NCBI GenBank assembly: GCA_018824145.1
Contig: JAHJHC010000088.1
Span: 2,696 to 66,695 of the forward strand
Direction: 5' to 3'
DNA from: Candidatus Omnitrophota bacterium
Lineage (GTDB): Bacteria; Omnitrophota; Gorgyraeia; Gorgyraeales; Gorgyraeaceae
Length of the DNA: 64,000 nucleotides
This document shows, in pieces, positions 1-25,840 of the stretch. The first letter of the stretch is position 1; the number at the start of each line of letters is the position of its first letter. Under the pieces are notes generated by a model. That model made no database searches, had not been told where the DNA came from, and saw nothing but the letters and a program-made list of their open reading frames with translations. The translations under genes and the position numbers were made by a program.

Positions 1-1101
1 TTCGTTCTTTTCGGCGAATATGAATCTACCCTTTTTGAATTAGTAAAAAATATTATCGAAGGAAAAAAAGAATTTTCTTCTATAGATGGCCTCATTTGGA
101 AGGATGATAAGAATAATGTAATTAAAAATAAACCACGGGATCTCTTTGATTTAAATATGTTGCCGTGGCCTTATAGGGATAGCGTACCGATGAAGAAATA
201 TTGGGATTTACCTGGGGATATCCCTCATCCTTCTGTTCAAATGGTTGCGTCAAGAGGCTGCCCTTTTTCATGTAATTTTTGCCTCTGGCCCCAGATCCTA
301 TTTAACGGAAAGACGTATAGGACGAGGGACGTAAAAGATGTAGTAGATGAGATGGAATATTTAATAAAAGAAAAAGGATTTAAATCCATATATTTTGATG
401 ATGATACTTTCAATATAGGTAAGACTAGAATGATGAATTTATGTAATGAGATTGTAAAAAGAGGCTTAAATGACACTCCTTGGGCTGTGATGGCTAGAGC
501 TGACCTGATGGATGAACAAATACTTAATGCAATGAAAACTGCGGGTTTACACGCAGTAAAATATGGAGTTGAGAGTGTATCTCAGGATATAGTCAATAGA
601 TGCGGTAAATGTTTAGATTTGAAGAAAGCCGAAGAGATGATCAAATATACTAAATCCTTAGGGATATATGTTCATTTAACTTTTTCTTTTGGCTTGCCTG
701 GCGAGACAAAAGAAACAATTAAAAGAGCTATAGATTATGCCTTGCAGCTAAATCCGCAATCTGTGCAATTCTCTATTATTACCCCTTTTCCAGGAACAAG
801 GCTTTTTGAAGAATTAGATGGGAAACAACGGATTTTAACCAAAGATTGGTCTTTGTATGATGGCCATTATAACTGTATTTTTCAACCAGATAACCTTTCT
901 ACGCGCGAATTAGAAGATGCAAAGCAATATGCTTACAGGATGTGGTCTGAACATCAGAGAAGGAATAGAGGGTTTCGTGGAGACGTCAGGAGATTTTTTG
1001 ATTATTATCATAATTATGGCTTGGGCGTAGTCTCTAGAAAGACAGTAAGTTATTTAAGTTATTTTTTATTCAATAGAAAAAAATTCATAGGTAAAATATG
1101 A
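1..1101 (+). CDS. Cobalamin-binding (class B) radical SAM protein, C-terminal part; 5' end lies upstream of the window
   Basis: The frame is open from position 1. It contains the CxxxCxxC cluster motif (SRGCPFSCNFC), a glycine-rich SAM motif and the TIM-barrel layout shared with the paralogs at 6877, 12211 and 16287. Confidence 0.8.
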   Translation, partial: FVLFGEYESTLFELVKNIIEGKKEFSSIDGLIWKDDKNNVIKNKPRDLFDLNMLPWPYRDSVPMKKYWDLPGDIPHPSVQMVASRGCPFSCNFCLWPQILFNGKTYRTRDVKDVVDEMEYLIKEKGFKSIYFDDDTFNIGKTRMMNLCNEIVKRGLNDTPWAVMARADLMDEQILNAMKTAGLHAVKYGVESVSQDIVNRCGKCLDLKKAEEMIKYTKSLGIYVHLTFSFGLPGETKETIKRAIDYALQLNPQSVQFSIITPFPGTRLFEELDGKQRILTKDWSLYDGHYNCIFQPDNLSTRELEDAKQYAYRMWSEHQRRNRGFRGDVRRFFDYYHNYGLGVVSRKTVSYLSYFLFNRKKFIGKI

Positions 1102-4100
1102 ATATTTGGCAGGAGATATTTAGAGGAATAGAAAACGAGAAGCAGGCATTTTGTGGGCCGCACACTGTACAAATAGACTTGACTGATAGATGTAACAATA
1201 CCTGTATTGCTTGCTGGGTGCATTCTCCTTTGTTGGATAAGAAGGAAGTTTTCCCTGAGAGAGAAAAAGAGATCTCATTTCCATTCGTAGAACAGTTAAT
1301 ATGTCAGCTGCGTGTATTGGGGACTAAAGAGATAATTCTTTCTGGCTCAGGTGAACCATTTATGTATCCGCAAATTAAAGAAGCGATATCGCTCATAAAA
1401 AAATCCGGGATATATTTGAATATTATTACCAACGGGACACTTCTTAATAAAGATATGGTTCGTTTTATTGTTGATAAGGGTGTTGATTTGATTACTTTAA
1501 GTATGTGGGCTGGGACGCCGCAGGCTTATGTGAATACACACCCAGGGAGAAGTTTAAGGGATTTCGAAGAGATAAAAGAAAAACTAAAAAACCTGAATTG
1601 CTATAAACAGCAAAGTGGACTTTTATTGCCTCATGTGAAGGTCTACAATGTTTTATGTAACAGAAATCATGATGATGTCGAAGCTATGGTTGATTTTGCG
1701 AAGGATATTGATGCGGGTTTTGTGGAATTTCAAATCGTAGACGTAATAAAAGGAAAAACAGATAATTTGCTTCTCAATAACGAGTTACAGAAAAAGATCA
1801 TTGCTCAGTTTGACAAGATCTCTAAAAGGCATGATTTTGTAAAATGGCACGACTTAAATGTAAAACTTAAGGGTAAAGATACTATGCAGGATTTGCGGGA
1901 TTTCGGGAAACTGTGGAAAAATTATAGATCGGATTTCGTTCTTTTGAAAAAGGCGCAAAATATTATATGTTCAAAGGAAAAATTTTGTGAAAAAATAGAA
2001 CAAAAGAATATCTTATTGCCTCCTGGTCATTTTCAACATCTTGGGTTTCGTTTCTCGTTCAATGAAGAAGTCTGTAAGATTTGCGCACATTTTAGCCGAT
2101 GCTTTCCATCTCAGGAATGTATTGTTGATGCGAATCTTCTGAATGTTTTAGGAATAGGTACGCTTATGAGGAGATTTTCTTCTCCTAAGTCAGAGTTGGG
2201 ATTATATGAAAGACATGTGGATTATTTTCCCTGTTATATCGGTTGGTATTATGCGCGGATCCTTACGAACGGAGATGTAATACCATGTTGTAAGGCGCAT
2301 TTGCATCCCTTAGGTAATATTTACAGAAAGTCATTTTCTGATATATGGGGTTCCAACGCATATAGAAAATTCAGGGTTAAGGCAAAAAGAGCCCCGAAAA
2401 CCGACCCTTATTTTTCCCTGATCAATTGTATTAAAAGTTGTGATAACTGGGGAATGAATGTGGAGATATCTAATAGGACTAAAACTTTTTTACATGACAG
2501 AACTATAACGTCGAAGATGAAATCTGAAAGACAGATTATCGTTTTAGCCAAAGATTATATAGATAGTAATTTTAATCCCAGCTATCACGATTTTGGCAAA
2601 GGACTTGTTATCGACGGCGGACATAAAGTCGGATTTGCTAAGTATAGATTTAGTATAGATGAAGATGGAGAATATGAATTTTGGTCGAGATATGCAAGTA
2701 ATGCTATAAGACCAGTTGATATTTACATGGATGGGATTTTATTGAAAAAGGGAGGACTAAACAAGATTACGGATGGATGGACTTCCAAGTTCCTTAAGTG
2801 GTATGAGGAATTTACAATAGAGTTGAAGAAAGGTGAGCATCTGTTCGGAATACGTTCTTCAAACAGCATTCCCCATATTGAAAAATTTATTCTTTTCAAA
2901 AAAGATAATCCCCCTGCCTTTATAAAAAAAGACAAGCATAAGTTTTTTTATAAAAAATTATCTCAATATATAACAGGAAAAAAAAGGTTGGAATCTTCTC
3001 TTGTAAAGGCAGTGAAAAATAGGTATATCGAAAGTTTAGGTATATATGATGGCGAATATGGATATAAGGGACCGTTTCATGTACAAATAGATTTGACCAA
3101 TAACTGTAATAATACCTGTATTGCATGTTGGTGCAATTCTCCTCTTTTAAAGGAAAAGAGGTTGTCTCCAAGAGAAAAGGAGCAATATCTCCCTATGGGA
3201 CTGGTTAAAGAACTTCTCGATGAAACTTCGGCTAAAGGAGCAACAGAGGTTTATTATTCGGGTAGCGGAGAGCCGTTCATGCACCCTGATATTATGCAAA
3301 TTTTAGAATATAGTAAGAAGAAAAATTTGATTTGTCACGTAAATACTAATTTTAGTCTCCTTACAAAAGAGAAATTAAGATGCCTTATTGATATTGGATT
3401 GGATTTTCTTACTGTAAGTACATGGGCAGCCACACCTGAAACGTATGTTAAGACGCATCCAAATCGAACAAAGGAAGATTTTTATAAAATAAGAGAGAAC
3501 CTATTATATTTAAATACACATAAGAAAGATAAGCCTTGTATCAAGCTTTACAATGTCATTTTTAATATGAATTATTTTGAAGTCGAAAAGATGGTGGAGT
3601 TCGCTAAAGAGACTATGTCTGAATCGTTAGAATTTACATTGGTTGATACCATGCCTAATGCAACAGACATCCTCGTTTTAAACAAAGAGCAATTGATGGA
3701 ATTAAAAAAAGCATTAGATAGGATTAAGTGCGTTCTAGATGAAGATAATAGGGTAAGGGATGCAAATATATTGATTTTTCAATTTGACCAGTTTTTGAGA
3801 AGAATTTATGTGGTTGATGACGTTAAGGAAGCAAAATATGATAGAAATATCATAGATAGGATGCCTTGTTATATTGGCTGGCTTTTTGCAAGAATAATTC
3901 CTAACGGAGAGGTTCATTCCTGTCTTAAGGCACACAGGATTCCCACGGGGTCTTTGTACAAAGATAGATTTTTAGAAATATGGAATTCCCAGAAACAGTA
4001 TCACTTTCGTAAAAAAACATTGGTTTGTAAAAAAGATGACCCGTTTTTCAGGTCTATTGGCAATGATTCTAATATAGAAGAGGCTGGCTGTTATAAGAGT

Positions 4101-5336: not shown

Positions 5337-5362
5337 AGTAAAGCTGTTAAATTTACTAAGAC

Positions 5363-6777
5363 ATGGAGAAATTCGACATCATTCTTACTGTTTGTCCACC
5401 ATGGGGAAGTCCTTCTGTACCTATAGGCCTTGCGTATTTAGCCAGTTATCTTAAAGACAAAAAATTAAATCCAAAAGTTTTAGATTTGAACTTAGAAGTG
5501 TTTGATAATTTGAGCAACGAGGGATTCGAAAAATACTGGCTTTCTAGATATTGTAAGCATTGGAGTGACCAGAAATTGTTTTGCGAGTTTATTAAGAATA
5601 TACCTGAACAAATAGAATATTGCGTAGGTAGATTGCTTTCTTTTGGCACGGAAATCATAGGTTTTTCAATTAATCAAAGTAATCGAAATTTTTCAGTTGT
5701 AATTGCCCAAGAGTTAAAAAAAGAAATGAAAAGTTAAAGATAATATTTGGCGGTATGGGTGTCTTCATAAGAGGAGAGCGAATGTTAATTGCGCCTGACA
5801 TTGTGGATGCATATGTTTTAGGTGAAGGTGAAGAATCCCTTTTTGAACTTATATCCAGAATCAAAGAAAATAAAAGTTGTTTGGATGTTCCAGGAGTTTT
5901 AGTAGAGTCTTTCGAAGCCAATTATACCCCTAGAAAGAAAATCAAAAATTTAGATGAGATACCGTTTCCTACATATGAAGACTTTGCTCTAGATAGATAT
6001 CCAGAATCAAATACAATATCTATAATTTCTAGCAGAGGATGTATGAATAAATGTGTTTTTTGTGGAAATTGGCCATTTTGGGGGCAATTCAGGCATAGGA
6101 GTGGAAAGAATATTTTTGATGAGATAAAACATCACTATGAAAGACATGAAATTACTACATTTAAATTTAACGATTTAGCCTGCAATTGGAATTTAGAAGA
6201 ACTTAAACGGCTCTGTAATCTTGTTATAAATAATAAAATGCGTATTACTTGGCAGAGCTATGCAGTATTGGATAATCTATTGACGGATGATATTTTAAAA
6301 GATATGAAATTAACTGGTTGTTGTGCCCTTTCGTTCGGTGTGGAATCAGGATCCAATAGGATCCTTAAATCTATGGATAAAAACCATAGTGCTGAAGTCG
6401 CAGAAAAGGTACTTCGCAGAACTTATAATGCTGGGATTCAGACAAATATTAATATTATGGTAGGCTTTCCAGGTGAAGGTGAACAAGAATTACAGGAAAC
6501 TATAGATTTTTTGATTAGAAATGTTAAGTACATAAGTGTAATCGAAGCTATATCAGTCTGTTATATTAAACCTTTGTCAATATTAGCAAATAATCCACTT
6601 GCCTATAACATAGTTCTTCCTCCCGGACCAGATCGATGGTACAATTGGTCTGCATCTGATGGAACCAGCGACTATGGCAATAGAAAAAACTTTGCAGATA
6701 GAATTTTAAGATTAGTGAAAGACTTGAATTTAAACTTCGATGTAGATAACCTATATGGATATTTTTATATTTTTTAG
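5363..6777 (+). pseudogene. Cobalamin-binding radical SAM gene split by an apparent frameshift in an A7 homopolymer (about 5714-5720); pseudogene or sequencing error
   Basis: ORF 5363-5737 encodes the B12-binding N-terminal region (ILTVCPPWGSPSVPIGLAYLASYL). ORF 5755-6777, in another frame, continues with the paralog-conserved KIIFGG...VLGEGEE region and the rSAM cluster motif (SSRGCMNKCVFC). The frame switch coincides with the run ttaaaaaaag. Confidence 0.6.
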
Positions 6778-6876
6778 ATAATTCATTATAATTGTAACTA
6801 TTAGTGGCCCTGTAACTTTATGGAAAATAATTAGATGGAAAAACATTGATGTAGTTTATATTGTAATGAGGGGAAA

Positions 6877-8349
6877 ATGAGTATGAATAAAGATATAGTT
6901 TTAGTATCTCCTCCGCCAGGCTGGCAAAGGACGTTGCCTATTGGATTAGGATTTTTAGCATCATATTTAAGTAAGAGCGGATTTTCCGCTGTTATTTATG
7001 ATATGGCTTTAGATATGATCGGAAAAGTAAAAGATGAGGATCGCGATTGTCTGTGGGGATTAAAAGCAAAAAATCTTTGGTTAGATCCAGAGGTGTTTAA
7101 ATTATTCGTCACTAAATATGAAAAAGAGATTCAGTCTTGTGTAGACCATATACTTTCTTTTAGTTCATCTATTATAGGTTTTTCGGTTATTCATTCAAAG
7201 CAACTTGTTACTTTAGAGATTATTCGCAGGATTAAAAAGATAGACCCATCTATTACTATAATTGTCGGGGGACCGGCTTGTTTTTATGATGAGGACCGCT
7301 ATATTCTCGAAGCACCTAAGATCATAGACATATTTGTATTAGGTGAAGGAGAGAAGACTTTGTACGAATGCCTTGTTAATATCAAACAAAATAAGCCGCT
7401 TGACGAAATAAAAGGTGTTAGGACTTTGGAGTCTAATTACAAGGGATATATATCCAGAGACCCTATTGAAGATTTAGATACTATTCCTTTTCCTGAATAC
7501 CCTGGTTTGAAGATTGAAGACTATCAACCGGATCCAGTGCCGCTATTCTGTAGCCGCGGATGTTTTGGCAAATGTTCTTTTTGTGAAATTAAAAATATAT
7601 GGAAGAGTTATAGAACAAGGAGTGCCGAGAGTATTTTTGAGGAGATTAAATTCTATGTAGAAAAGAAAGAGATATTTCATTTTTCACTATTCGATTCCAT
7701 AGTGAACGGTGATCCGAAAAATTTAGAAAGGTTATGTGATTTTGTTATTAAATCTATGTATAAGATCCGTTGGGAAGGCAACGTGCTTGCTTTACCTTCG
7801 ATGAATAGGGATATTTATTCAAAAATGCAAAAGGCTGGCTGTGAACTTGTATATTTTGGTGTCGAAACAGGATCTGAATACGTTTGCAAAAAGATGAAGA
7901 AGCCGTTTACGATTTTTGAAGCGGAAAGGAATATTCGCTTAGCGCATGAGGCAGGCATAGAGGTTTCCGTAAATTTCATTACTGGTTTTCCAGGAGAGGA
8001 TGAAGAACATTTTCAGCAAACGATAGATTTCACTAAAAGAAATAGCCAATATATAGATAGAGTCGATTTTATTACCGAATGTCAAGTAGCTAGGGGAACG
8101 CACCTGTTTTTACACCCTGCTGATTACGGAATAGTTATACCAGAAGATTGGCAAGGCTATAAATGGTATACTAATGACGAGAAAAATACCATCTCTGTAA
8201 GACAAGCAAGAACTTTGATTCTTGGGAAGTATTTAGATTCACTGGGGGTTAAAATTAACGTAAATTTTAATCTTGATGATGGAAGCCAAAAAGTCAAGGG
8301 TAAGATAGTCGTTAATTTAAAGAAGGATATTAATAAGGGGACCTTATGA
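6877..8349 (+). CDS. Cobalamin-binding (class B) radical SAM protein
   Basis: N-terminal B12-binding-like region (VLVSPPPGWQRTLPIGLGFLASYL), then IIVGGP and VLGEGE motifs, then the rSAM CxxxCxxC motif (CSRGCFGKCSFC). Confidence 0.8.
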   Translation: MSMNKDIVLVSPPPGWQRTLPIGLGFLASYLSKSGFSAVIYDMALDMIGKVKDEDRDCLWGLKAKNLWLDPEVFKLFVTKYEKEIQSCVDHILSFSSSIIGFSVIHSKQLVTLEIIRRIKKIDPSITIIVGGPACFYDEDRYILEAPKIIDIFVLGEGEKTLYECLVNIKQNKPLDEIKGVRTLESNYKGYISRDPIEDLDTIPFPEYPGLKIEDYQPDPVPLFCSRGCFGKCSFCEIKNIWKSYRTRSAESIFEEIKFYVEKKEIFHFSLFDSIVNGDPKNLERLCDFVIKSMYKIRWEGNVLALPSMNRDIYSKMQKAGCELVYFGVETGSEYVCKKMKKPFTIFEAERNIRLAHEAGIEVSVNFITGFPGEDEEHFQQTIDFTKRNSQYIDRVDFITECQVARGTHLFLHPADYGIVIPEDWQGYKWYTNDEKNTISVRQARTLILGKYLDSLGVKINVNFNLDDGSQKVKGKIVVNLKKDINKGTL

Positions 8350-9143
8350 AAGTTTCTGCCTTAGACTTTCAAATTTTTCTTGTAAGACTAGGGCATGAAT
8401 ATTTTTTTCAGGGATTTTATTATTTCAAATTTCTGGAATACCCTTTAGTTTATAATAATCTTAACCTTGATCCCAGAGATAAATATCTTGATATTGGAAG
8501 CGGCCAATCAATTTTCCCTCTTTTTGCCTTAGTAAAAAATGATTGTTATGTACAAGTCTATGACGATTATTCTCTAATAAAAGATAGCATGGAATATTAT
8601 AAGAATATCATAGAAAAAATGAGCTTAAGCCCTTCTAGTAAAGAGAAATTTACTATCAATGAAACAACAGAGACAGACTTGCCAAGCGATTATTTTGATA
8701 AGATTTCTTGTATTTCTGTATTAGAGCATAGTAGAGGGAATGGCGATACCGAAACAATAAAAACAATTTCAAGGATTTTGAAGAAAAGGGGTAAAGTCGT
8801 AATGACTTTACCTTTTAATAATGGTGAATATATTGAAGAAGAAAATCCAGAAGATATTGGATTTTTTCAGCGCTTGTATAGTTTGGATGCAATAAAACAT
8901 AGAATAGGCGATCCTTCCGGCTTAGAGGTAGAAAAGGTTATATATTTTGGCGAATGTAATGCGCACATAGGCAGATTATATCGACAAAATAAATTTCATA
9001 GATTAAAGTGGATTATGCCATTTTTTCCCTCATTTTTTTGGCGAATATGCCATAGCTATGAAGGGGGGTTTCGTTGTTTTCATGAAAAAGAATTAGATAA
9101 AAAGTATATAGGTGTAAGTTGTATCGTAATGAGAAAGAAATGA
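8346..9143 (+). CDS. Putative class I SAM-dependent methyltransferase
   Basis: Glycine-rich motif I (YLDIGSGQSIFPL) followed by acidic motif II-like residues. Start overlaps the upstream stop by 4 nt, suggesting translational coupling. Confidence 0.45.
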   Translation: MKVSALDFQIFLVRLGHEYFFQGFYYFKFLEYPLVYNNLNLDPRDKYLDIGSGQSIFPLFALVKNDCYVQVYDDYSLIKDSMEYYKNIIEKMSLSPSSKEKFTINETTETDLPSDYFDKISCISVLEHSRGNGDTETIKTISRILKKRGKVVMTLPFNNGEYIEEENPEDIGFFQRLYSLDAIKHRIGDPSGLEVEKVIYFGECNAHIGRLYRQNKFHRLKWIMPFFPSFFWRICHSYEGGFRCFHEKELDKKYIGVSCIVMRKK

Positions 9144-12100
9144 ATTTTCCCAAATATTTATCTATCCAAACTACTTCTTTGTGTAATGCATCTTGTGTAT
9201 TCTGCCCTTACAGGGAGATGCAAGATATATTTCCCCCAAAAATAATGGACATGAATTTGTACAATAAGATTATAGATGAATGTGCAAATTATAAAAATGT
9301 AGAAAGAATTATTCTTTATATGAATAACGAACCGTTAACCGACCCTTATTTATTAGAAAGAATAAATTATGCAAAAGAAAAGATTCCATGGGCAAATGTC
9401 CATATTCTTACAAATGGATTATTGCTCACGGAAGAAATGGCGGAGAGGCTTATAAATTCTAAATTAGATTGGATCGGTATAAGTTTTCATGGGATAAGAC
9501 AAGAGACGATAGAGAATGCAATGGGTATTCCGTTTGGGGTTACTTTAAAGAGGATAGATGGTTTTGTAGAGAGGGCAAGGAGTAAAAAGGATATAAAAGA
9601 ATATGTTATGATTACGTTTTTAAGACATGAATATTTGACAGGAGAAGAAAAGGAAGAAGTAATCGGTTATTGGAAGAGTAAAGGGATAGAAAGGATTAGT
9701 TACTTTGATGGACCTGTTTCTCGTGCAGGGAACGTTAAACGTTTGGCAAAGACTCATAATAAAGGGAGAATTGTAGGTTGTAACTCTATTTGGGCAGATG
9801 AAATGATTCATATTGTTGAGGATGGTAAGATGGTTCTGTGTTGTATGGATTGGAGAAGAGAGCATGTGCTTGGAGATTTGAATAATCAGAGCATTTATGA
9901 GATATGGAATGGAGAAAGAAATAAGACATGGCAACTTATTTATGGTAAAGGAGATATGCCCGACGGCTTTCTTTGTCGAAAATGTGAAGAGGCACAAATA
10001 TCAGAGGAGGATCTATTGCTTATTATGACCCCTCCCTGGCAGACTAAAATGCCCCCGTTAGGCGCAGCATACTTAAGCAGTTTTTTAAGGTCCGAAGGGT
10101 TTAAAATAAAAGTAATAGATTTAAATGTAAAATTACATAATAGTGCTTCCGAGGATAAGAGATCTTTGTGGGATATTTCTACGATAAATAACTTTCCTCC
10201 AGATAAGATTGCAGAGAAATTTGTCCATGAGTTTCAGGGTGAATTAGAAGATTTTATTATGGAGGCATGTAATTCATCTGCAAAGCTTATAGGATTTTCT
10301 ACTACAATAGCCAGCATTACAATTGCTGTCTATTTAGCGCATCAGATTAAATTGAGAGATCCTTCTAAAATTACTATAATAGGAGGTCCTGGCGCTTATT
10401 GGAATACTTTTGACATTGATCCAAAGAAGTTAATAGATATATTTGTAGTCGGAGAAGGGGAATTACCTTTATTGGAGATACTAAAGTGGTCTAAGAGAGA
10501 ATTATCTCTTTCAGGTTTAATTGGAATACCAGGAACCGTAATATGCATAGATCAACAATACCTAAGTTTCCTACCTCCTAATCCTATTAAAAGAATAGAT
10601 GATATACCTTTTCCCGATTTTCTCGAATTTAATCTCAAAGATTATAATAAAGAGGACGGATATAAACCCTTACCGTTGCTTATTAGCAGAGGATGTATTA
10701 ATAGATGCAGTTTTTGTATTGACCACAAGATGAATAATCCTTTTAGAATAAAAGATCCGCATAAAGTGGTTGAAGAGATGAAATTTCATGTGAAACATTA
10801 TGATACCAGAGAATTTGAATTTAATGATTTATTATGCAATGGAAATTTAAAACAGTTGGAAAAGATATGCGATTTGATTATCGAGGAGAATATTGATATA
10901 AAATGGTCAAGTTATGCGGCGATAAGAGAAGGAATGAGTTTAGAATTATGTAGGAAGATGTACAAATCAGGATGTATGGGGATTTGTTATGGAATGGAGT
11001 CTGCTTCAGACATTGTTTTGAAAAAGATGAATAAAAGATATGATTCTCAGCTGGCCGAGGAGGTTATTCGCAATACTCACAATGCAGGTATAAAGAGTTG
11101 CATAAATATAGTTATCGGGCATCCAGGTGAGACTGAGAGAGAATTTAGAAATACTTATGAGTTTATACGAAGAAATAAAGATTATATAGATCAGGTAACT
11201 AATGTTTCTACGTGTTTTGTTTTATCGGAGACTGACCTTATGAATAACCCCAGTAAATTCGGTGTTTATTTTAAATGGCCTTTAAAGACTCGATGGAGAG
11301 CTTTTATTAAAAAGGATGGATTGTGCCCAAATTATACAGAATATTATACTGGACCAGATAATGGCCCTTATTCACGGGCACGTCGACTTAGGAGATTTTT
11401 AGGGCTCCTTCATAAGGAGAATGTCCCTTATCTTATTATAAATTACATAAAACCACACAATGAAAATTTGGATGAGTTTATCGAGGCAGACAAGCGTAAG
11501 AGAAATTTGAAATATAAATATTTTGAGTTAAATGTTTCAGAACAAGGGCGATGTAAATTGTTCTGTAAAAATTTAGAATTGACTAGGGATGTAGGAATGA
11601 ATGCTTCTTTTTTTGTTAATAACAAATGGATTGATTCTTCCACAGCGCGATGGGATGTTAAGCGACATAATGCATTTGTTGACATTAAGATAAGGTGGCC
11701 GGAATTTCCTATTACTCAGCATTGGACGGTAAAATTTACTAGTAGGTCTATAGATTGGGGTATAGAAATATTTTTTCACGAAGGACTAAGAATTTTTCAA
11801 AGTAAAATAGGTGTAATGTTAGTGAATAAATATAATAAATATATATTAAATGATTCAATAGCTAATTTTCCTAGCTTTTCTACAAAAAAGTGGCAAGAGA
11901 TTTTGTTCTCAAGAATTTCCGAAATAGGCTTGGTTTCAAGTAGTCCTTTTCCGGGAATCGTTCTAAAACCGAAATTTGAAAAAGAAGTTTTTATTCAATT
12001 GCAGAATTCCCCTTCTTCTTTATTGACAAGGATGGTCAATGTTTGTTTTTTTGAAAATAGCAATCCCGAAGGATTTAATAATGACGGACATTATTTCAAA

Positions 12101-12148
12101 AAGGGGGAAGTCATAAAAGGTAAGATAGCAATGTCTTTAGATATTTGA
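9119..12148 (+). CDS. 1009-aa fusion: an N-terminal rSAM/SPASM-like domain, a cobalamin-binding rSAM domain, and a C-terminal extension of about 280 aa with no recognisable domain
   Basis: First rSAM motif SLCNASCVFCPY with a downstream Cys-rich region (CNSIW...LCCMDW...LGDL...IW). Second half has a B12-binding-like region (LLIMTPPWQTKMPPLGAAYLSSFL) and a second rSAM motif (ISRGCINRCSFC). An alternative start is at 9140. Confidence 0.8.
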   Translation: MYRNEKEMNFPKYLSIQTTSLCNASCVFCPYREMQDIFPPKIMDMNLYNKIIDECANYKNVERIILYMNNEPLTDPYLLERINYAKEKIPWANVHILTNGLLLTEEMAERLINSKLDWIGISFHGIRQETIENAMGIPFGVTLKRIDGFVERARSKKDIKEYVMITFLRHEYLTGEEKEEVIGYWKSKGIERISYFDGPVSRAGNVKRLAKTHNKGRIVGCNSIWADEMIHIVEDGKMVLCCMDWRREHVLGDLNNQSIYEIWNGERNKTWQLIYGKGDMPDGFLCRKCEEAQISEEDLLLIMTPPWQTKMPPLGAAYLSSFLRSEGFKIKVIDLNVKLHNSASEDKRSLWDISTINNFPPDKIAEKFVHEFQGELEDFIMEACNSSAKLIGFSTTIASITIAVYLAHQIKLRDPSKITIIGGPGAYWNTFDIDPKKLIDIFVVGEGELPLLEILKWSKRELSLSGLIGIPGTVICIDQQYLSFLPPNPIKRIDDIPFPDFLEFNLKDYNKEDGYKPLPLLISRGCINRCSFCIDHKMNNPFRIKDPHKVVEEMKFHVKHYDTREFEFNDLLCNGNLKQLEKICDLIIEENIDIKWSSYAAIREGMSLELCRKMYKSGCMGICYGMESASDIVLKKMNKRYDSQLAEEVIRNTHNAGIKSCINIVIGHPGETEREFRNTYEFIRRNKDYIDQVTNVSTCFVLSETDLMNNPSKFGVYFKWPLKTRWRAFIKKDGLCPNYTEYYTGPDNGPYSRARRLRRFLGLLHKENVPYLIINYIKPHNENLDEFIEADKRKRNLKYKYFELNVSEQGRCKLFCKNLELTRDVGMNASFFVNNKWIDSSTARWDVKRHNAFVDIKIRWPEFPITQHWTVKFTSRSIDWGIEIFFHEGLRIFQSKIGVMLVNKYNKYILNDSIANFPSFSTKKWQEILFSRISEIGLVSSSPFPGIVLKPKFEKEVFIQLQNSPSSLLTRMVNVCFFENSNPEGFNNDGHYFKKGEVIKGKIAMSLDI

Positions 12149-12210
12149 ACATTAAGATGCTAGTAGGTTGGTTTGCCTATAGACAAAAAAGAGATTGAGG
12201 AAATGAGAAA

Positions 12211-15200
12211 ATGAAAGAGTTCAAGGATAAGAAAGAAGTCCCTGATATATTTCTTGTAATTTCACCACCATGGGGCATAGAAGATCCTCCTTTGGGATTA
12301 GCTTGCCTTTCTACGTACCTTAAGATTAGGGGTTTTAAGCCAGAAGTGTTTGATTTTAATATTTATATGTATGACAATGCAAACCAGTCATATAAATACC
12401 TCTGGGAGATGGGAAGTGCAAACGATTGGAGAGGCAAGGGTGCATCTAACGAGATATTTTCTATCTTTAAAAAAGAAATAGATTATTGTGTAGAGAAGAT
12501 TGTTTCTTCTGGCGCTGAGATAGTAGGATTTTCTATGCTTTCTAACTCGCAGGATTTGATTACCGCGAAGATTATAAAAGAAGTTAAGACAAAGAGACCT
12601 AATATCAAGATAATTTTAGGGGGGATTTCTATCTCTGTCTCTGAGCAGAGGGCTTTCTTTGAAGCAAAGGGCAATAATTTAATCGATGCTTATATTATAG
12701 GAGAAGGAGAAGAGAGTTTATGTCAGCTATTGCAAGCCATTAAATCGGCACAATCACTTGAAGGTATTCAGGGCGTTTTAATTTATAAAGATGACAACGT
12801 AATTCACTCACCCAGGATTTTAAAGGAAAATCTTGATGAATTTCCCTTTCCAACATTTGAAGAGTTCGATTTTAATATGTATCTTAATAAAGGCAATAGT
12901 CTTGCTATGGAGTGGTCGAGAGGTTGTATCGGTCATTGTTCTTTCTGTGCCTTTAAAACATCATCATATATGTTTAGAAAAAAGTGTCCGGAGTTAATAG
13001 TTAAAACGGTAGAATATTATATTAAAAAATATAAAACTAATCATTTTTCCCTAGTAGATTCAGCTATAAACGGGGATTTAAAATATCTTGAGGAAATTTG
13101 CAATTTACTCATTAGATATAAACTAAATGTCAAATTTTCCGCTTTAGCTATCCCAAGAAGAGATATGAGCAAGAGATTATTAGGGATAATGAAAGAGGCA
13201 GGATTTATAAGAATAGAATATGGCGTGGAGAGTGGTTCGGATAAGGTCTTAAAGGAAATGAAAAAGGTTTATGCCTCAAGAGACGTTGAGAATATTATAA
13301 AAGCGACTCATGAAACAGGGATTGCAACAGTAATTTATTTGATTATAGGTTTTCCGGGGGAAGGGGAAGTCGAGTTTGCAGAGACAATTGAGTTTTTAAA
13401 GAGTAACAGTGAATATATCGATCTTGTTAAATCTATAAACCCGCTATATCTAATGGCTGGGTCGCATATTTATAAGCATCATAAGCATTATGGGATTACA
13501 TTACCAGCTGTTGACTCTGATATTAAGTGGTTTATAGGTAGAGAAAATACATACAAAATAAGAGTAGAACGGGTAAATAAAATCAGGTATCTTCTGAAAG
13601 AAATAGGTGTTAAATATCATAGTAAAGATAACCAGTTCGAACGCGAAGTGAGTTTTTCACAGGTTTCTTCAGATAGAACTTTAGACTTTTTGTTGGTCAA
13701 TTTGCCTCCCTGGTCGCAGGAAAATCCTCATATAGGGATAGGATTTTTAAGTAGTTATTTGAGGAGTAAGTCTGTTGCTCTGAAAGTGTTGGATTTAAAC
13801 AAAGCCTTTTTTATCAACAACCCGGATTTTAGAATGCTATGGCATGTAGAAAATAAAAATTTTTGGTCAAACAAAGATACATTCCCGTTAATTTTGGAAA
13901 TATTCCAAAAAGATATTGAAAAGTCCGTAGAAGATATTTTGTCTTTTGATTGTGCTGTGTTAGGTTTTTCCGTGGTCGATCCCAAAGAGAAATTAACCAT
14001 AGAGTTTATAGAAAGGATAAAAGAAAAATCCCCGGATAAAAAAATAATTTTAGGGGGACCGGCTACTTCTACTCCTGAACAGAGGAAAATATTTTTAGAT
14101 GCTGCAGGAGAAGACATAGATGTTTTTGTTGTGGGTGAAGGAGAGGAAACTTTGTTTTATTTATTAGAGATGTTTTTACGTAAGAAAGATATCAAGATAA
14201 CAGGAGAGTGCTATATAAAAAATAACGGAAGATGGGTGCATAGAGGTGTGAGACCTATGATTGCTTTGGATGGTATCCCCTTTCCTACTTATGAAGAATT
14301 TGATTTAAATTTATACGGTAAGTCTCTTTTGGTTGAATGGTCTAGAGGATGTAAAGGTAGATGCGCATTTTGTAAGAATTACAGGTTGTTTTCTATGTAC
14401 AGATTTAAACCAGCAGATTGTATAGTGCAAGAGTTGAAATATCATAAAGAAAAATACAATATATGCGAGTTTACAGTTACTGATAGTATTTTAAACGGAG
14501 ATTTAGAGAATTTAAACCAGGTGTGTAATAAGGTGATCTTGGATAACCTAAAGATAAAATGGACAGGGCAGATAGCACCTCATAAATATATGGGTTTTGA
14601 TTTTTTTAAAAAGATGAAAGAAGCTGGATGTTTTAAGCTTCAGATAGGACTGGAATCCGGATCTAATAGGGTTTTAAGGTCTATGCGAAAGACTTTTACG
14701 GCAGAAATCTCTGAAATGAACATAAGGTTTGCTAAAAAAGCTGGGATTGAAACTGAGATCTTTGTAATGGTAGGATTTCCTTCTGAGACAGAGAGAGATT
14801 TTAAGGAGACTTACAATTTTATCAGGAGAAATTCTAATTATATAGATACGATAAAATCAATTAATACCTTGCATTTGATAGCAGGGACAGATATATATGA
14901 AAACAGAGAGAAGTACGGTATTAAACCTTTGCCTGAAAAAGATTGGCATTATTTATGGGAGACTTATGATGGAAATATATATAACTTGAGAAAAGAAAAA
15001 ACGCAAAGGTTATTGGATTTGTCAAATGACTTAGGGTTGAAAGTTATGGAGGCTAATATACAAGAAGGAAAAGAAAATATAGTTGAAACAATAATAGGAA
15101 AACAAGATTTAAAAGAAAAGATCCTAATACTTAAAGAATCCGTGAATAGCTTACAAAGACTTCCGCAGAAAAGGATGATTACAAGAAGAAGTCGGAAGCT

Positions 15201-15315
15201 GTCTAGATGGCTGATCTTGATTTTCCTGTGTTTTTATACATTTTTTTATATTATTTATTTCTGGATCTATATGAAGCTTAGGAATAAGGTATTGTTGGGC
15301 GGTAGGAGAAAATAA
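12211..15315 (+). CDS. 1034-aa tandem fusion of two cobalamin-binding rSAM modules with a C-terminal transmembrane anchor
   Basis: Two copies of the B12-binding region (LVISPPWGIEDPPLGLACLSTYL; LLVNLPPWSQENPHIGIGFLSSYL) and two rSAM motifs (EWSRGCIGHCSFC; EWSRGCKGRCAFC). The C-terminus carries a hydrophobic helix (WLILIFLCFYTFFYIIYFWIY). Confidence 0.8.
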   Translation: MKEFKDKKEVPDIFLVISPPWGIEDPPLGLACLSTYLKIRGFKPEVFDFNIYMYDNANQSYKYLWEMGSANDWRGKGASNEIFSIFKKEIDYCVEKIVSSGAEIVGFSMLSNSQDLITAKIIKEVKTKRPNIKIILGGISISVSEQRAFFEAKGNNLIDAYIIGEGEESLCQLLQAIKSAQSLEGIQGVLIYKDDNVIHSPRILKENLDEFPFPTFEEFDFNMYLNKGNSLAMEWSRGCIGHCSFCAFKTSSYMFRKKCPELIVKTVEYYIKKYKTNHFSLVDSAINGDLKYLEEICNLLIRYKLNVKFSALAIPRRDMSKRLLGIMKEAGFIRIEYGVESGSDKVLKEMKKVYASRDVENIIKATHETGIATVIYLIIGFPGEGEVEFAETIEFLKSNSEYIDLVKSINPLYLMAGSHIYKHHKHYGITLPAVDSDIKWFIGRENTYKIRVERVNKIRYLLKEIGVKYHSKDNQFEREVSFSQVSSDRTLDFLLVNLPPWSQENPHIGIGFLSSYLRSKSVALKVLDLNKAFFINNPDFRMLWHVENKNFWSNKDTFPLILEIFQKDIEKSVEDILSFDCAVLGFSVVDPKEKLTIEFIERIKEKSPDKKIILGGPATSTPEQRKIFLDAAGEDIDVFVVGEGEETLFYLLEMFLRKKDIKITGECYIKNNGRWVHRGVRPMIALDGIPFPTYEEFDLNLYGKSLLVEWSRGCKGRCAFCKNYRLFSMYRFKPADCIVQELKYHKEKYNICEFTVTDSILNGDLENLNQVCNKVILDNLKIKWTGQIAPHKYMGFDFFKKMKEAGCFKLQIGLESGSNRVLRSMRKTFTAEISEMNIRFAKKAGIETEIFVMVGFPSETERDFKETYNFIRRNSNYIDTIKSINTLHLIAGTDIYENREKYGIKPLPEKDWHYLWETYDGNIYNLRKEKTQRLLDLSNDLGLKVMEANIQEGKENIVETIIGKQDLKEKILILKESVNSLQRLPQKRMITRRSRKLSRWLILIFLCFYTFFYIIYFWIYMKLRNKVLLGGRRK

Positions 15316-15337
15316 TCTCAAATAAACGGGGAGAGTT

Positions 15338-16285
15338 ATGACAGGAGACAAAATCAAGTTTTCAGTAGTAGTGCCTTTTTATAATGAAGAAGACAATGTA
15401 AAAATACTCCACAAGGAATTGATTTCTGCGCTGAAAGGGCATGAATATGAGTTAGTTTATGTTAATGACGGAAGCACAGATTCTACTTATTCTAGACTTA
15501 TAAAAGAGACAGAAGACCTTAAGCCGCCGCATGCAAAAATAATTAATTTCACTAAAAATCTTGGTCAGTCGTTTGCGTTCAAGGCAGGATTGGATAATAC
15601 TTCTTTTGATACAATAGTTTTTATAGACGGGGATTTACAAAATGATCCTCGCGATATCCCTTTGTTATTAGAGAAATTTCTAGAGGGATATGATTTGGCC
15701 CAGGGTATAAGGGCGAGGAGGAAGGACCCGTTTTTTTCTAAGATAGTGCCTTCAAAAATAGCCAATTTAATTTTAAGAATTTTATGCGGAAGTAAATTTA
15801 AAGATTTGGGATGTTCTTTAAAAGTATTTTCTAAAAAGATTACCGATAGATTGTTTTTTTATAAAGGGTTTCACAGGCTCCTACCCGTATATTTTTCTTT
15901 AAAAGGCGCTAAGGTTACAGAAGTAAAAGTAAACCACAGAAGTCGAAAATCAGGAAAGAGTAAATATGGATTTTCAAGGACGATAGAAGTGTTATTTGAG
16001 GTTATAAAGATAAATTTTTTCGAGAAAGGCTCAAATAATTTTATATATATTACAATAGGTGTGGGAATGACTTTGGTTATCTTAAGTTTTTTAGTGGGGT
16101 TCAATTTTATTAAATATATCAATTTATACTCCTTTATGGCCCTTCTTTCTTTTGTATTAGGGCTATATCTTTTTGTAATAGCATCAAGTCTTTATATTAT
16201 AAGGTCTTTTTATAGTTATTATCAAAAATATAAAGAATTTGATGCATATTTATTATCAGTTGTAAATTATAGTCAAAATCCCTAA
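15338..16285 (+). CDS. GT2 polyprenol-phosphate glycosyltransferase (GtrB/ArnC/DPM1-like) with C-terminal TM helices
   Basis: N-terminal FSVVVPFYNEE, then DGS...D and DGDLQNDP motifs typical of GT-A family GT2 dolichol-phosphate sugar synthases, followed by two C-terminal hydrophobic helices. Confidence 0.8.
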   Translation: MTGDKIKFSVVVPFYNEEDNVKILHKELISALKGHEYELVYVNDGSTDSTYSRLIKETEDLKPPHAKIINFTKNLGQSFAFKAGLDNTSFDTIVFIDGDLQNDPRDIPLLLEKFLEGYDLAQGIRARRKDPFFSKIVPSKIANLILRILCGSKFKDLGCSLKVFSKKITDRLFFYKGFHRLLPVYFSLKGAKVTEVKVNHRSRKSGKSKYGFSRTIEVLFEVIKINFFEKGSNNFIYITIGVGMTLVILSFLVGFNFIKYINLYSFMALLSFVLGLYLFVIASSLYIIRSFYSYYQKYKEFDAYLLSVVNYSQNP

Positions 16286-16286
16286 T

Positions 16287-17756
16287 ATGATTGCTGTTGG
16301 AAAGGACAATTTTATGCAAGGAATAAAGTTTTGTTTGGTTTTCCCCCCTTATAAAGAAAGTGAAGATATCTTTTTCTTGAAAACCGCGAGAAATAATTTA
16401 GGGAAGATTCCTCCTCTTAGTTTATTGGCTGTGGCTGCAATATTAGAGAAATACGGTGCTGAGGTTAAGCTTATAGATGCAAATGCGTCAGGGCTTTCTG
16501 TAGATGAGGTGATCCAAACTGCTGTTGAATTTTCTCCTGATTTTTTGGGATTCACCTTATCTACATATCAGTTCCATTTTACCTTAGAATGGATAAGGAA
16601 GCTTCGGTCGAAAGTTGACGTTCCTGTAATAGTAGGTGGTCCTCATGCAAGAATATATCCTCGGGAGGTATTAACTCATGAGTGCATCGATTATTGTGTT
16701 ATGGGGGATGCAGAAGATATATTGCCCCAGTTGACCTATTCATTAGTCGAGAAAAAGAGCTTAACTGAAGTAGGGGGGATAGCATATAAAAATAATGAAG
16801 GAGATGTAAAGTCAAACGACTTTTCTTTGTATATTGACAGTTTAGATGGTGCCCCGTTTCCTTCGCGGCATTTATCGGACAATTCTTTATACTATTCTTT
16901 GATATCTAAATATAAAAACTTTACGGCAATGACTTCAAGCAGGGGATGTGTTTTTCAGTGCACATTTTGTGATAATCATTGTATTCCTTACAGGGCTATG
17001 AGTCCTAAGAGGGTTGTGGATGAGATGGAGATTTGCAAAAAAGATTTTGCTATAAATGAAATAGATATGTTTGACGGGGTTTTTTCTGTTAATAAAAAGA
17101 GATTGTTGGAAGTAAGCGATCAAATAGTAAAAAGAAAGCTTAAAATATATTGGTCATTTAGGACCAGGGCTGATTTGATTGATAAAGAGACGCTAACGGC
17201 ATTAAAATCAGCGGGATGTATAAGGATATATTATGGAATAGAAAGTGGTTCCGCTAAGATTTTAAAAAATATTAAGAAGAATGTGGAAATCGAAAATATT
17301 AAATATATACTGAAATTGACAAAAGGCGCAGGGATAGATACCTTTGGATATTTTATGGTTGGAAATTATGGGGAAACCTATGAGACGATCAGCGAGACTA
17401 TGGATCTAATGCTATCTCTCCCCTTGGATTACATACAGATAGCTCCGATATTTTATCCTCCTAATACTGAGGTTTATTCTGATTTAATGAAGGTAATAAA
17501 ACGGGATTATTGGAAGGACTATACCGTAGATTCCGAGTTAGAGATGGAATTCCCTATAATAGGGACTGATTTTAATAAAAGTCAAATCCATTCTATTGTC
17601 AGAAAAATGTATTTACGTTTTTATTTAAGGCCTAAATTTATTATCAAATTCATATTTAGTTTAAAATCTTTTAGCCAATTAGCACGATCGGTAAAGGCAG
17701 TTTTTGATATGGTCAGAGAATCTGTAATAGACAATTCTGCAAATAAGGAGTTTTAA
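16287..17756 (+). CDS. Cobalamin-binding (class B) radical SAM protein
   Basis: B12-binding-like N-terminal region (IVGGPHA, MGDAED) and rSAM motif SSRGCVFQCTFC. Confidence 0.8.
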   Translation: MIAVGKDNFMQGIKFCLVFPPYKESEDIFFLKTARNNLGKIPPLSLLAVAAILEKYGAEVKLIDANASGLSVDEVIQTAVEFSPDFLGFTLSTYQFHFTLEWIRKLRSKVDVPVIVGGPHARIYPREVLTHECIDYCVMGDAEDILPQLTYSLVEKKSLTEVGGIAYKNNEGDVKSNDFSLYIDSLDGAPFPSRHLSDNSLYYSLISKYKNFTAMTSSRGCVFQCTFCDNHCIPYRAMSPKRVVDEMEICKKDFAINEIDMFDGVFSVNKKRLLEVSDQIVKRKLKIYWSFRTRADLIDKETLTALKSAGCIRIYYGIESGSAKILKNIKKNVEIENIKYILKLTKGAGIDTFGYFMVGNYGETYETISETMDLMLSLPLDYIQIAPIFYPPNTEVYSDLMKVIKRDYWKDYTVDSELEMEFPIIGTDFNKSQIHSIVRKMYLRFYLRPKFIIKFIFSLKSFSQLARSVKAVFDMVRESVIDNSANKEF

Positions 17757-23785: not shown

Positions 23786-23792
23786 GATTTTT

Positions 23793-24893: not shown

Positions 24894-25840
24894 TGATAAA
24901 TATATCCATTATAATTTTAACTTTTAATAGCTCTGAGCATATTAAATCTTGTCTGGATTCTGTATTTAGACAAAGTTATCGGAATTTTGAGGCGATTTTA
25001 GTAGATAATGGTTCAATAGATGACACCTTATCATTGGTAAAAAGGGATTATCCAAAAGTTAGATTGGTTGAGAATAAAAGAAATCTTGGTGCTTGTGCGG
25101 CAAGAAATAAAGCTATTGGTCTCGCTAAAGGGAGGTGGATTCTGACCTTGGATTGCGATGTTATTTTAAAAAAGGATTTTATTGAGAAAATAGTCGGATT
25201 TATAGGAGAGGCTGGAGAGTCAATAGGCATGTTTCAACCGAAGATCTTACAAATAGATAGAAAGACTATTTATTCTTGTGGGATATATCTTTCTAATATG
25301 AGAAGATTCCATGACATTGGCAGAGGGATTCCTGAAAATGGTAGATTTGACATGACAAAAGATATTTTCGGTGCTTGTTCTGCTGCGGCGGTGTACAAAA
25401 AACAGATGTTAGAAGAAATAAAAGAAACCACGGGTTATTTTGATGAAAGATTTTTCTTCTTAGTAGAGGATGTGGACTTAGCATGGCGGGCACAAAGAAA
25501 GGGTTGGGGAGCAAAATTTTATTCTGAAGCAGTTTGTTATCATTATGGCAATTCTTCAGGGTCGGATAAAAAACTCAGGCAATTTCTTTCTTTTCGCAAT
25601 CGATATTACACCATAATAAAAAATGAGGGCCTTAGAAAATATATTAAGAAATTTTTTCCATTATTGTGTTATGATTTTCCGAGATTAGTATATTTGTTTT
25701 TTACTAATAAGTATATTTTAAGAACAGTTAAAGATAAAGTATCTATATCCCTGAAGGGTGAATTTCTACATGTTGCTATAACTCTCCTGTTAACTCACCG
25801 ATTACTTGACAGGCTGTTGTATGTATGGGAAAATTATTAA
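24893..25840 (+). CDS. GT2 glycosyltransferase (rhamnosyltransferase-like)
   Basis: ISIIILTFNSSEHIKSCLDSV...VDNGSIDDT and a DCDV motif. Paralog of the gene at 40963-41856. Confidence 0.8.
   Translation: MINISIIILTFNSSEHIKSCLDSVFRQSYRNFEAILVDNGSIDDTLSLVKRDYPKVRLVENKRNLGACAARNKAIGLAKGRWILTLDCDVILKKDFIEKIVGFIGEAGESIGMFQPKILQIDRKTIYSCGIYLSNMRRFHDIGRGIPENGRFDMTKDIFGACSAAAVYKKQMLEEIKETTGYFDERFFFLVEDVDLAWRAQRKGWGAKFYSEAVCYHYGNSSGSDKKLRQFLSFRNRYYTIIKNEGLRKYIKKFFPLLCYDFPRLVYLFFTNKYILRTVKDKVSISLKGEFLHVAITLLLTHRLLDRLLYVWENY

Follow-up and report, generated by a model that had tools for sequence, protein, structure and literature searches.

A radical SAM gene array as a candidate tailoring block for an exported cell-surface glycan in Omnitrophota

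The first 17,756 nucleotides of a 64,000-nucleotide stretch of DNA from Candidatus Omnitrophota bacterium (contig JAHJHC010000088.1, positions 2,696 to 66,695 of the forward strand; the whole stretch is called the window below) encode a dense array of radical S-adenosylmethionine (SAM) enzymes (rSAMs). We consider that this array is probably the tailoring block of an ATP-binding cassette (ABC) transporter-dependent pathway for a cell-surface glycan, in which a polyprenol-linked glycan would be remodelled by radical chemistry in the cytoplasm. The gene content, the sharing of domains between enzymes and exporter, a predicted fold, gene fusions and synteny, all of them observed directly, underlie this proposal. 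While ABC-transporter-dependent glycan pathways are known, what is new here is the combination of an exporter with a candidate reader domain that has no prior description and an unprecedented load of rSAM domains. In a full-text literature search, no paper connected Wzt, O-antigen ABC pathways or carbohydrate-binding modules (CBMs) with arrays of radical SAM enzymes, and none reported such arrays in Omnitrophota.

Composition of the array and its accessory domains

Positions 1-17756 hold 11 Radical_SAM domains by Pfam, all 11 with an intact CX3CX2C motif, which bears out the figure of about 11 in 17.7 kb given in an initial annotation of this DNA. Seven are of the B12-binding class-B type (B12-rSAM) and four are SPASM/twitch rSAM domains; gene A carries one, the triple protein (gene B) three, genes C and D one each, F and G two each and I one (coordinates in Table 1). 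The earlier assignment of seven domains to class B holds by homology: those in D, F, G (twice) and I exceed the gathering score of the B12-binding family PF02310, while A and C are placed through alignment to their paralogs. Here A is the weakest case, as its alignments (253-378 aa) cover the core and only part of the B12 region, whereas those of C to the other B12-rSAMs span 438-470 aa. Gene A is cut by the edge of the window, its start lying 1149 nt further 5'. The full gene is present at 1374-3623 of L001, a contig from the independent Logan assembly that matches the window without a difference where the two overlap and extends 2522 nt 5' of it. It encodes 749 aa, of which the N-terminal ~235 aa form an accessory domain that we call the X-domain, and the full protein scores a sub-threshold 27.6 bits for B12-binding, with the B12 part encoded upstream of the window, in L001. 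The N-terminal fragment of gene C is likewise sub-threshold for PF02310 (17.8 bits). The frameshift reported for gene C is real in this sequence: it is a shift of +/-1 in an A7 run at 5716-5722, the same shift occurs in L001, and the repaired reading, ELKK-KRNEKLKIIFGG, agrees with the paralogs and is 33% identical to D over 470 aa.

The array genes are all co-directional on the + strand and tightly packed or overlapping, and the intergenic gaps of at most 100 bp leave no space for a precursor gene inside the array. The rSAM genes listed in the initial annotation stand, as does, on weak Pfam matches, the class I methyltransferase gene, but that list had omitted the glycosyltransferase family 2 (GT2) gene at 15338-16285 inside the array. 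Promoter-like sites occur at chance level (72 against 73.7 expected), and the terminator-like sites were all judged, by their coordinates, to be intragenic or on the opposite strand. A hydropathy scan of the rSAM proteins finds a single hydrophobic segment, the C-terminal helix of G, which fits cytoplasmic, membrane-proximal enzymes.

The B12-rSAM domains fall into two groups, with C, D, F and the two domains of G sharing 29-37% identity, A and I sharing 32%, and 23-29% between the groups. Identity among the three SPASM units of the triple protein is 34-43%. Judged by their sequences, the array paralogs are old and not recent duplicates. PF13186 (SPASM) matches all three units of the triple protein and gene F. 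The SPASM C-terminal regions have ~4-5 aligned Cys positions, only three of them invariant across the three units (PCY, C.K.C), a pattern that fits one predicted auxiliary cluster (twitch-like) better than the two expected from a full seven-Cys SPASM motif.

The X-domain, of ~220 aa, forms the N-terminal part of protein A and the C-terminal part of protein F and is also present in the exporter protein Wzt encoded directly upstream of the array; the copy in F matches that of gene A with an E-value of 4e-14 and that of the upstream Wzt with 5e-13. It has no Pfam match. A HMMER search of 1.84 billion representative proteins places 610 representative clusters in the family at E<=1e-3, thus defining a sugar-binding-type domain family without a Pfam match that marks exporters as well as enzymes. 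Word-index homologue searches, which are insensitive compared with full HMMER, gave one match for a single X-domain and four for a 5-sequence profile. Architectures were classified among 154 proteins, made up of the 150 matches listed and earlier finds: 86 are Wzt proteins with one to five X-domains (Wzt-X1 to X5), 60 carry X-domains only and are mostly fragments, and eight are rSAM fusions (SPASM or B12), and 1 of the 86 Wzt-X proteins also carries a SPASM rSAM fusion. The predicted fold is a galactose-mutarotase-like supersandwich, with matches to a fucanase of glycoside hydrolase (GH) family GH174, aldose 1-epimerases, GH38 mannosidases, polysaccharide lyases, OpgG, OpgD and domain 5 of beta-galactosidase, and a Foldseek search with the X-domain model returns a matching set of folds. 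Many of its invariant residues are Trp, Tyr or Phe and His is never invariant, and we therefore read the domain as one that probably binds rather than catalyses.

The triple protein contains a second accessory module, an insert that follows its first rSAM unit and precedes the second; 14 relatives have a conserved version of it. The profile of this insert, built from 15 orthologues, matches CBM35 and CBM6 entries of the PDB (2w1w and 2w47 at E 8e-5, 8j3x at 1.5e-4, 2vzp at 7e-4, 1uxz at 0.027), an assignment that consists of profile-to-sequence matches only. The insert has no Pfam match at E<=0.01, and its profile found nothing in a word-index protein search of limited sensitivity; a single-sequence AF2 model with a pLDDT of 50 was discarded. 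Both accessory modules thus point to a carbohydrate polymer, and the X-domain, by its modelled fold, and the CBM35-like insert, by its sequence profile, are predicted to bind carbohydrate.

The upstream exporter and a recurrent class of loci

The 2.5 kb of L001 that lie 5' of the window hold the beginning of gene A and a partial open reading frame (ORF) of 447 aa, without a Pfam match, that consists of two X-domain copies. Over its full length this ORF aligns with the C-terminal end of a partial Wzt-X4 ORF from a related locus (L082; 55% identity over 446 aa) and is 35-47% identical to the C-termini of other Wzt-X ORFs. Its syntenic orthologues form the C-terminal part of a 900-1660-aa protein with an N-terminal ABC ATPase, whose best NCBIfam matches are TagH and the galactan-export Wzt, and are directly preceded by an ABC-2 permease (PF01061) whose best NCBIfam match is Wzm/KpsM. 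Thus, the gene directly 5' of the array is, by alignment and synteny, a Wzt-type glycan exporter ATPase with X-repeats. The initial annotation had suggested that a precursor peptide might be encoded upstream, and this suggestion finds no support in the adjoining 2.5 kb, which contain the Wzt-X C-terminus and gene A and no NHLP or Nif11 peptide. An exact-match scan of metagenome contigs for the DNA 5' of the window gave no match.

Two sets of related loci (120 in all, mostly Omnitrophota, numbered L002 to L121) put this arrangement in context. The first comprises 80 loci from a one-genome-per-species scan with an alignment of the three SPASM units; the second, 40 metagenomic loci, was fetched via the X-domain alone to remove selection bias. 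The first set derives mostly from metagenome-assembled and single-amplified genomes of Omnitrophota, with some labelled Planctomycetia and others Desulfobulbaceae, Cloacimonadota, Aminicenantes, Patescibacteria, or DPANN or Methanosarcinales archaea. B12-rSAMs are present in 63 of these 80 loci, family 4 glycosyltransferases (GT4) in 44, X-domains in 39 and Wzt in 28. In the second set rSAMs occur in 37 of 40 loci, the other three ending at or just past Wzt, and in all 26 loci of at least 10 kb.

By Pfam and NCBIfam a common gene order recurs: GT4, Glycos_transf_4 (WecA-like), a flavin amine-oxidase-like protein, Wzm, Wzt with two to six X-domains, an X-B12-rSAM, one to three rSAM-SPASM genes, GT4, GT2 and an AsnB-type amidotransferase gene, which follows the GT4-GT2 pair in related loci. 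The WecA-like gene lies two genes 5' of Wzm in L047 and L089. The X-B12-rSAM corresponds to gene A, whose orthologues (49-68% identity) directly follow Wzt-X in most related loci that carry X-domains, and in most loci of the second set that have both genes; in many cases it forms a fusion with a second B12-rSAM or with a SPASM rSAM. Orthologues of the class I methyltransferase occupy the equivalent position in L008 and L010, and the architecture of gene F is also found in L008; the ATG of gene F at 9140 is the start taken by the Logan gene caller. The flavin amine-oxidase-like protein is kept between the WecA-like gene and Wzm (L089 5707-7005, L047 1488-2795, L007 2-910); it weakly resembles UDP-galactopyranose mutase, and its best-scoring models are the uncharacterised PRK07208 ones.

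Fusions tie the rSAMs to glycosyltransferases directly. The relatives contain 11 GT4-rSAM-SPASM fusions, two GT2-rSAM fusions and one B12-rSAM-GT2 fusion, with the GT4 fusions of L017 and L023 confirmed by Pfam. Fusion among rSAMs is common as well, with 96 ORFs carrying two to five rSAM domains. Per locus (at most 21 kb) there is a median of five rSAM domains and a maximum of 13 (L054), so that the array in the window, with its 11 domains in 17.7 kb, stands at the large end of a class that recurs and is not a one-off. These natural multi-rSAM enzymes, in which a single polypeptide can have as many as five domains, supply a large set for enzymology.

Several individual loci deserve mention. 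Giant polypeptides are encoded in L023 (14894-21077; 2061 aa, SPASM and four B12-rSAM units), in L059, labelled Methanosarcinales (945-7241; 2098 aa, four B12-rSAM units), and in L074, labelled Woesearchaeota (1400-7282; 1960 aa, three B12-rSAM units and SPASM). In the Omnitrophota relatives L054 (1671-21101), L076 and L063, the Wzt-X3, X-SPASM and B12-rSAM-X genes are followed instead by a tandem run of 8-12 separate rSAM-SPASM genes of ~340 aa, which is a different way to expand the module. The Wzt homologue of L065 (3916-8907) is 1663 aa long and has six X-repeats, and the variation of the copy number from two to six across loci suggests multivalent binding to a repeating polymer. In L085 (15737-17830) a GT4 fused to a long HEAT-repeat region, 697 aa in all, takes the place of the first GT4 after the rSAM genes.

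The likely substrate and the alternatives

The initial annotation had named a lipid-linked glycan as its fallback for the substrate of the array, and it is this reading that we favour, on account of the carbohydrate-binding-type domains shared by enzymes and exporter, the CBM35-like insert, the GT-rSAM fusions and the synteny with WecA-like, Wzm, Wzt and glycosyltransferase genes. As to how such a pathway could work, we infer the binding, the level of the substrate and every chemical step. A WecA-like phosphotransferase, seen in relatives only, would start a polyprenol-phosphate-linked glycan that the GT4 and GT2 enzymes would extend at the cytoplasmic face. The rSAM enzymes would dock on this lipid-linked glycan by way of the X-domain (A and F), the CBM35-like insert (the triple protein) and the membrane anchor of G. 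By analogy with GenK/GenD1, HpnJ, BtrN, AprD4 and BlsE, the B12-rSAM domains may modify unactivated sugar carbons, most probably by C-methylation, with the A/I subgroup perhaps catalysing another rearrangement, and the SPASM/twitch domains may carry out redox-type steps, for example alcohol oxidation, epimerisation, deoxygenation or decarboxylation. The class I methyltransferase and the AsnB-type protein could add O- or N-methyl and amide groups, again by analogy. Wzm and Wzt would export the finished chain, which the X-repeats that form the C-terminus of Wzt would recognise. In the periplasm, the gene content suggests, the polyprenyl-phosphate-sugar synthase-like GT2 and three GT-C fold glycosyltransferases could add side residues, and a Wzy_C-type ligase could attach the glycan to an acceptor.

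Known systems offer precedents for parts of this scheme. In known Wzt proteins a C-terminal carbohydrate-binding domain recognises the O-antigen by its capped terminus (PMC9445017, PMC3482155). As in the E. coli O9a/O8 WbdD-Wzt pathway, an ABC-2 permease and a C-terminally extended ATPase lie beside glycosyltransferases, a WecA-like initiator and tailoring genes, and a coupling of export to the recognition of a modified glycan would fit the locus. However, the extension consists here of two to six galactose-mutarotase-like repeats of ~220 aa and there of a single Wzt_C domain; moreover, the extension domain is here also fused to the tailoring enzymes, which are radical SAM proteins, where the E. 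coli pathway employs a kinase/O-methyltransferase. The X-repeats would thus define a new type of candidate substrate-recognition module of Wzt. Three-component systems for extracytoplasmic glycan decoration consist of a GT2 polyprenyl-phosphate-sugar synthase, a flippase and a GT-C enzyme (PMC11127046). The window likewise has an ArnC/PgfS-type GT2 and three PMT_2 GT-C genes, but no small flippase was identified in it, and the B12-rSAM gene I stands between the GT2 and GT-C genes.

The rSAMs were placed in families by NCBIfam scores and by sequence matches to PDB entries. For C, D, F and G the best sub-threshold NCBIfam models are the RiPP (ribosomally synthesised and post-translationally modified peptide) C-methyltransferase TIGR03975, the PhpK P-methyltransferases and ApyD. 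The best sub-threshold models of the SPASM units are of the tungsten-cofactor maturase, NirJ, PqqE and AhbD types. Among solved sequences, gene D is nearest to 9ccb and OxsB, gene I to AprD4 and OxsB, and the SPASM unit to the BtrN twitch domain (matched by its C-terminal region), BlsE and MoaA. The matches to BtrN, BlsE and AprD4 agree with a carbohydrate substrate, if weakly, and can serve as leads only. Class B also includes the non-methylases BchE, HpnJ and OxsB. The statement in the initial annotation that class-B rSAMs are typically methyltransferases is fair in general, but two of the seven here, A and I, score best against the non-methylases HpnJ (200 and 171.6 bits; cut-off 577.6) and BchE (133 and 155.5 bits; cut-off 481). 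A housekeeping BchE- or HemN-like role was considered and rejected, as the scores are far below the cut-offs and the genes sit in a low-GC glycan island.

A number of points weigh against a glycan as the substrate. The ATPase domain of Wzt, Wzm and the WecA-like gene are assigned to this contig by synteny with its relatives. Proteins with no action on carbohydrates can have the galactose-mutarotase-like fold as well, among them the P1 domain of YidC, an NDH subunit and a virus capsid protein, and the X-domain model was built from only six sequences. The X-domain of Wzt differs in fold from the known Wzt_C, and neither the Wzt-X3 of L007 nor the L001 ORF matches PF14524. None of the array proteins reaches the cut-off of a RiPP, methyltransferase or other NCBIfam family, the best sub-threshold models are those of peptide- and phosphorus-methylating enzymes and of HpnJ and BchE named above, and the solved sugar- or cyclitol-acting enzymes are matched only in part and weakly, at E 1e-8 to 1e-18. 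Finally, the same window contains a module of a PqqD-like protein, an rSAM and a small peptide, and peptide-directed rSAM chemistry thus exists in the neighbourhood.

It is possible, though unlikely, that the substrate is indeed a glycan but that the rSAMs act before polymerisation, on nucleotide-sugar or polyprenyl-phosphate-sugar monomers, giving branched, deoxy- or C-methyl sugars that the glycosyltransferases then assemble. All sugar-acting rSAMs that we are aware of (DesII, GenK, AprD4, BtrN, BlsE) use small molecules, and the position of gene I, between the polyprenyl-phosphate-sugar synthase-like GT2 and two GT-C genes, would suit an enzyme that modifies a lipid-linked monosaccharide donor and not the main chain. 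However, modules of the CBM35-like and repeated supersandwich kinds typically recognise polymers, Wzt has to recognise the finished lipid-linked chain and has a domain in common with the enzymes, and the GT4-rSAM fusions and polypeptides with three to five rSAM domains suggest enzymes that work processively on a single tethered substrate. The likeness to GenK/GenD1 (C-methylation), AprD4 (deoxygenation), BtrN (oxidation) and BlsE (decarboxylation) would lie in radical chemistry at unactivated sugar or cyclitol carbons, and among solved sequences the SPASM unit and gene I have their best or near-best matches in BtrN, BlsE and AprD4. Yet those are single, soluble enzymes for small molecules, to which the sequence matches are weak and partial, whereas the domains considered here number up to 13 per locus (11 in the array), are fused to each other or to CBM-type modules and are tied to polymer export.

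Somewhat more improbable is a lipid substrate, either the polyprenol carrier or a hopanoid-like or membrane-spanning lipid, in keeping with HpnJ, HpnP and HpnR, with Tes, with the rSAMs that modify glycerol dialkyl glycerol tetraethers (GDGTs) or with the proposed 'ladderane' B12-rSAMs. The sub-threshold NCBIfam scores include HpnJ (200 and 172 bits), rSAM_ladder_B12 (at most 206 bits, for the double protein) and Tes (106 bits), and GDGT-MAS is a weak solved match, but all these scores are far below the cut-offs. Moreover, the accessory domains are of carbohydrate-binding type, the conserved partners are glycosyltransferases, a WecA-like protein, Wzm and Wzt, and no fatty-acid, isoprenoid or squalene genes were seen, though many neighbouring ORFs were left unannotated. 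HpnJ, a hopanoid-associated B12-rSAM, acts on bacteriohopanetetrol glucosamine and rearranges a lipid-linked sugar. It is the best NCBIfam match of A and I, but one far below its cut-off, with no hopanoid genes seen nearby and with an X-domain on gene A. Surveys of biosynthetic gene clusters in Omnitrophota list RiPP and 'ladderane' clusters (PMC9902471), which could be counted in favour of a lipid. These clusters may in part be the arrays described here, and genome-mining tools may call as RiPP or 'ladderane' clusters what are probably envelope-glycan loci.

Arrays of B12-rSAM paralogs are known from the biosynthesis of polytheonamide, and the initial annotation had pointed to such proteusin clusters. 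On this reading a ribosomally made precursor, encoded elsewhere, would be the target of many B12-rSAM C-methyltransferases and of rSAM epimerase-like enzymes. As with PoyB, PoyC and PoyD, diverged B12-rSAM paralogs and other rSAMs share one operon, which implies many modifications of one polymer, and TIGR03975 is the best sub-threshold family for five domains (104-135 bits per protein, the highest for D, and 273 bits for the two-domain protein; cut-off 281.85). The remark that no substrate gene is visible is correct for 1-17756; the candidate precursor of the window is a 54-aa Cys-rich ORF that has a Shine-Dalgarno sequence, matches no NCBIfam family and lies beside its own PqqD/rSAM pair at 36.3-38.0 kb. 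Together with the genes at 29769-34877, the stretch 36319-38547 looks like a separate RiPP-like module ~20 kb 3' of the array. None of its PqqD-like, peptide, HprK-like, NTP_transf_5 and peptidase genes has a homologue among the 80 loci of the first set, in which glycosyltransferase, Wzt and X-domain genes recur; the module is therefore not a conserved partner of the arrays, and a RiPP reading by way of the 54-aa peptide was rejected on this ground. With Wzt-X upstream in place of an NHLP or Nif11 precursor, no space for one in the array, no RiPP recognition element (RRE) or PqqD domain detected in the array proteins by Pfam, the TIGR03975 cut-off unmet and a context of glycosyltransferases and an exporter with carbohydrate-binding-type modules, we regard a proteusin-like cluster as very improbable.

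If the array does tailor a polyprenol-linked surface glycan, radical SAM chemistry would be a routine tool for bacterial surface glycans, beyond antibiotics, cofactors and RiPPs, and C-methylated, deoxygenated or otherwise radical-derived sugars would be predicted on the envelopes of the ultra-small, largely uncultivated Omnitrophota. A bolder and more doubtful proposal is that CBM-tethered rSAM arrays rewrite a simple polyprenol-linked glycan after its polymerisation, generally in Omnitrophota and in some other anaerobes, and that the galactose-mutarotase-like repeats of Wzt check the result. Such rewriting may involve multiple C-methylations, oxidations, epimerisations or deoxygenations, possibly also C-C links, and would be the glycan counterpart of polytheonamide maturation.

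The remainder of the window

Downstream of the array the window continues with further glycan genes (Table 1). For the GT2 inside the array, the best NCBIfam scores, ArnC with 127.6 bits and PgfS with 126 bits, are both below the cut-offs, and its C-terminal hydrophobic stretches were judged by eye in the translation. The AsnB-type protein passes the cut-off of asn_synth_AEB (482 bits; cut-off 267.1) and stays below that of the XrtA/PEP-CTERM amidotransferase (532 bits; cut-off 816.9).

Table 1. Genes and domains of the array and of the glycan island in the window
Feature	Position	Strand	Basis
Gene A, 3' part, X-domain and B12-rSAM	1..1101	+	Pfam Radical_SAM 67.8 bits
Gene B, triple rSAM-SPASM/twitch protein, 1412 aa, MBU1853423.1	1098..5336	+	Pfam 3 Radical_SAM and 3 SPASM; 3 CX3CX2C
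CBM35/CBM6-like insert, ~170 aa, between rSAM units 1 and 2 of the triple protein	2508..3017	+	Profile search
Gene C, B12-rSAM split by frameshift (ORFs 5363-5737 and 5755-6777)	5363..6777	+	Pfam, paralog alignment
Gene D, stand-alone B12-rSAM	6877..8349	+	Pfam B12-binding 43.3 bits, Radical_SAM 84.4 bits
Class I SAM methyltransferase	8346..9143	+	Weak Pfam matches to Methyltransf_23, _11, _31
Gene F, rSAM-SPASM, B12-rSAM and C-terminal X-domain (11480-12145)	9140..12148	+	Pfam 2 Radical_SAM, SPASM, B12-binding
Gene G, double B12-rSAM, one C-terminal transmembrane helix (aa 997-1015)	12211..15315	+	Pfam 2 Radical_SAM and 2 B12-binding; hydropathy scan
GT2, polyprenyl-phosphate sugar synthase-like (ArnC/PgfS-like)	15338..16285	+	Pfam Glycos_transf_2
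Gene I, B12-rSAM, A/I subgroup	16287..17756	+	Pfam B12-binding 82.4 bits, Radical_SAM 83.4 bits
Two GT-C fold (PMT_2, ArnT-like) membrane glycosyltransferases	17789..20693	+	Pfam PMT_2
AsnB-type glutamine amidotransferase	20700..22577	+	Pfam Asn_synthase, GATase_7
GT4, GT4, GT2 glycosyltransferases	22622..25840	+	Pfam; orthologous GT4/GT2 follow rSAM genes in many related loci
Second ABC-2 type transporter, DrrA-like ATPase and permease	25825..27397	+	Pfam; NCBIfam best DrrA, DrrB, not Wzt
Third GT-C (PMT_2) glycosyltransferase	28310..29806	+	Pfam PMT_2 62.2 bits
NTP_transf_5 (29769), tetratricopeptide-repeat (TPR) protein (31297), HprK-like/ScmC-like (32684), rSAM-SPASM (33585)	within 29769-34877		
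PqqD-like chaperone	36319-36672		
rSAM paired with the PqqD-like gene	36656-37825		
54-aa Cys-rich ORF with Shine-Dalgarno sequence, MPEKKRNKKKKYEAPCLEEVSIQEGGGIATGCSNWRGVHELCSCGCENGGSAVN	37788-37952		
Signal-peptidase-I/S24-like gene	38020-38547		
O-antigen ligase-like membrane protein (Wzy_C)	39736..40947	-	Pfam Wzy_C 87.5 bits
GT2, end of low-GC glycan island	40963..41856	+	Pfam

The glycan/rSAM island is set off by its composition, with a GC content of 0.31-0.36 from position 1 to ~42 kb and of 0.39-0.42 thereafter. Beyond ~42 kb the genes are ordinary (S15, PNPase, UppP, FtsK, RodZ, PgsA, RecA, AlaRS, HisD), and this housekeeping end of 22 kb has a single rSAM, MiaB/RimO-like, at 48470; the window's further rSAMs are those at 33585 and 36656. 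A DrrA-like ABC ATPase, which looks like part of the RiPP-like module, is broken up over two ORFs that overlap (38661-39502), and a GT2 fragment of 109 aa lies at 27978-28307. Together with the A7 shift in gene C, these apparent island disruptions could reflect assembly errors, gene decay or phase variation. The GC skew is positive throughout the window, and nearly all genes are on the + strand.

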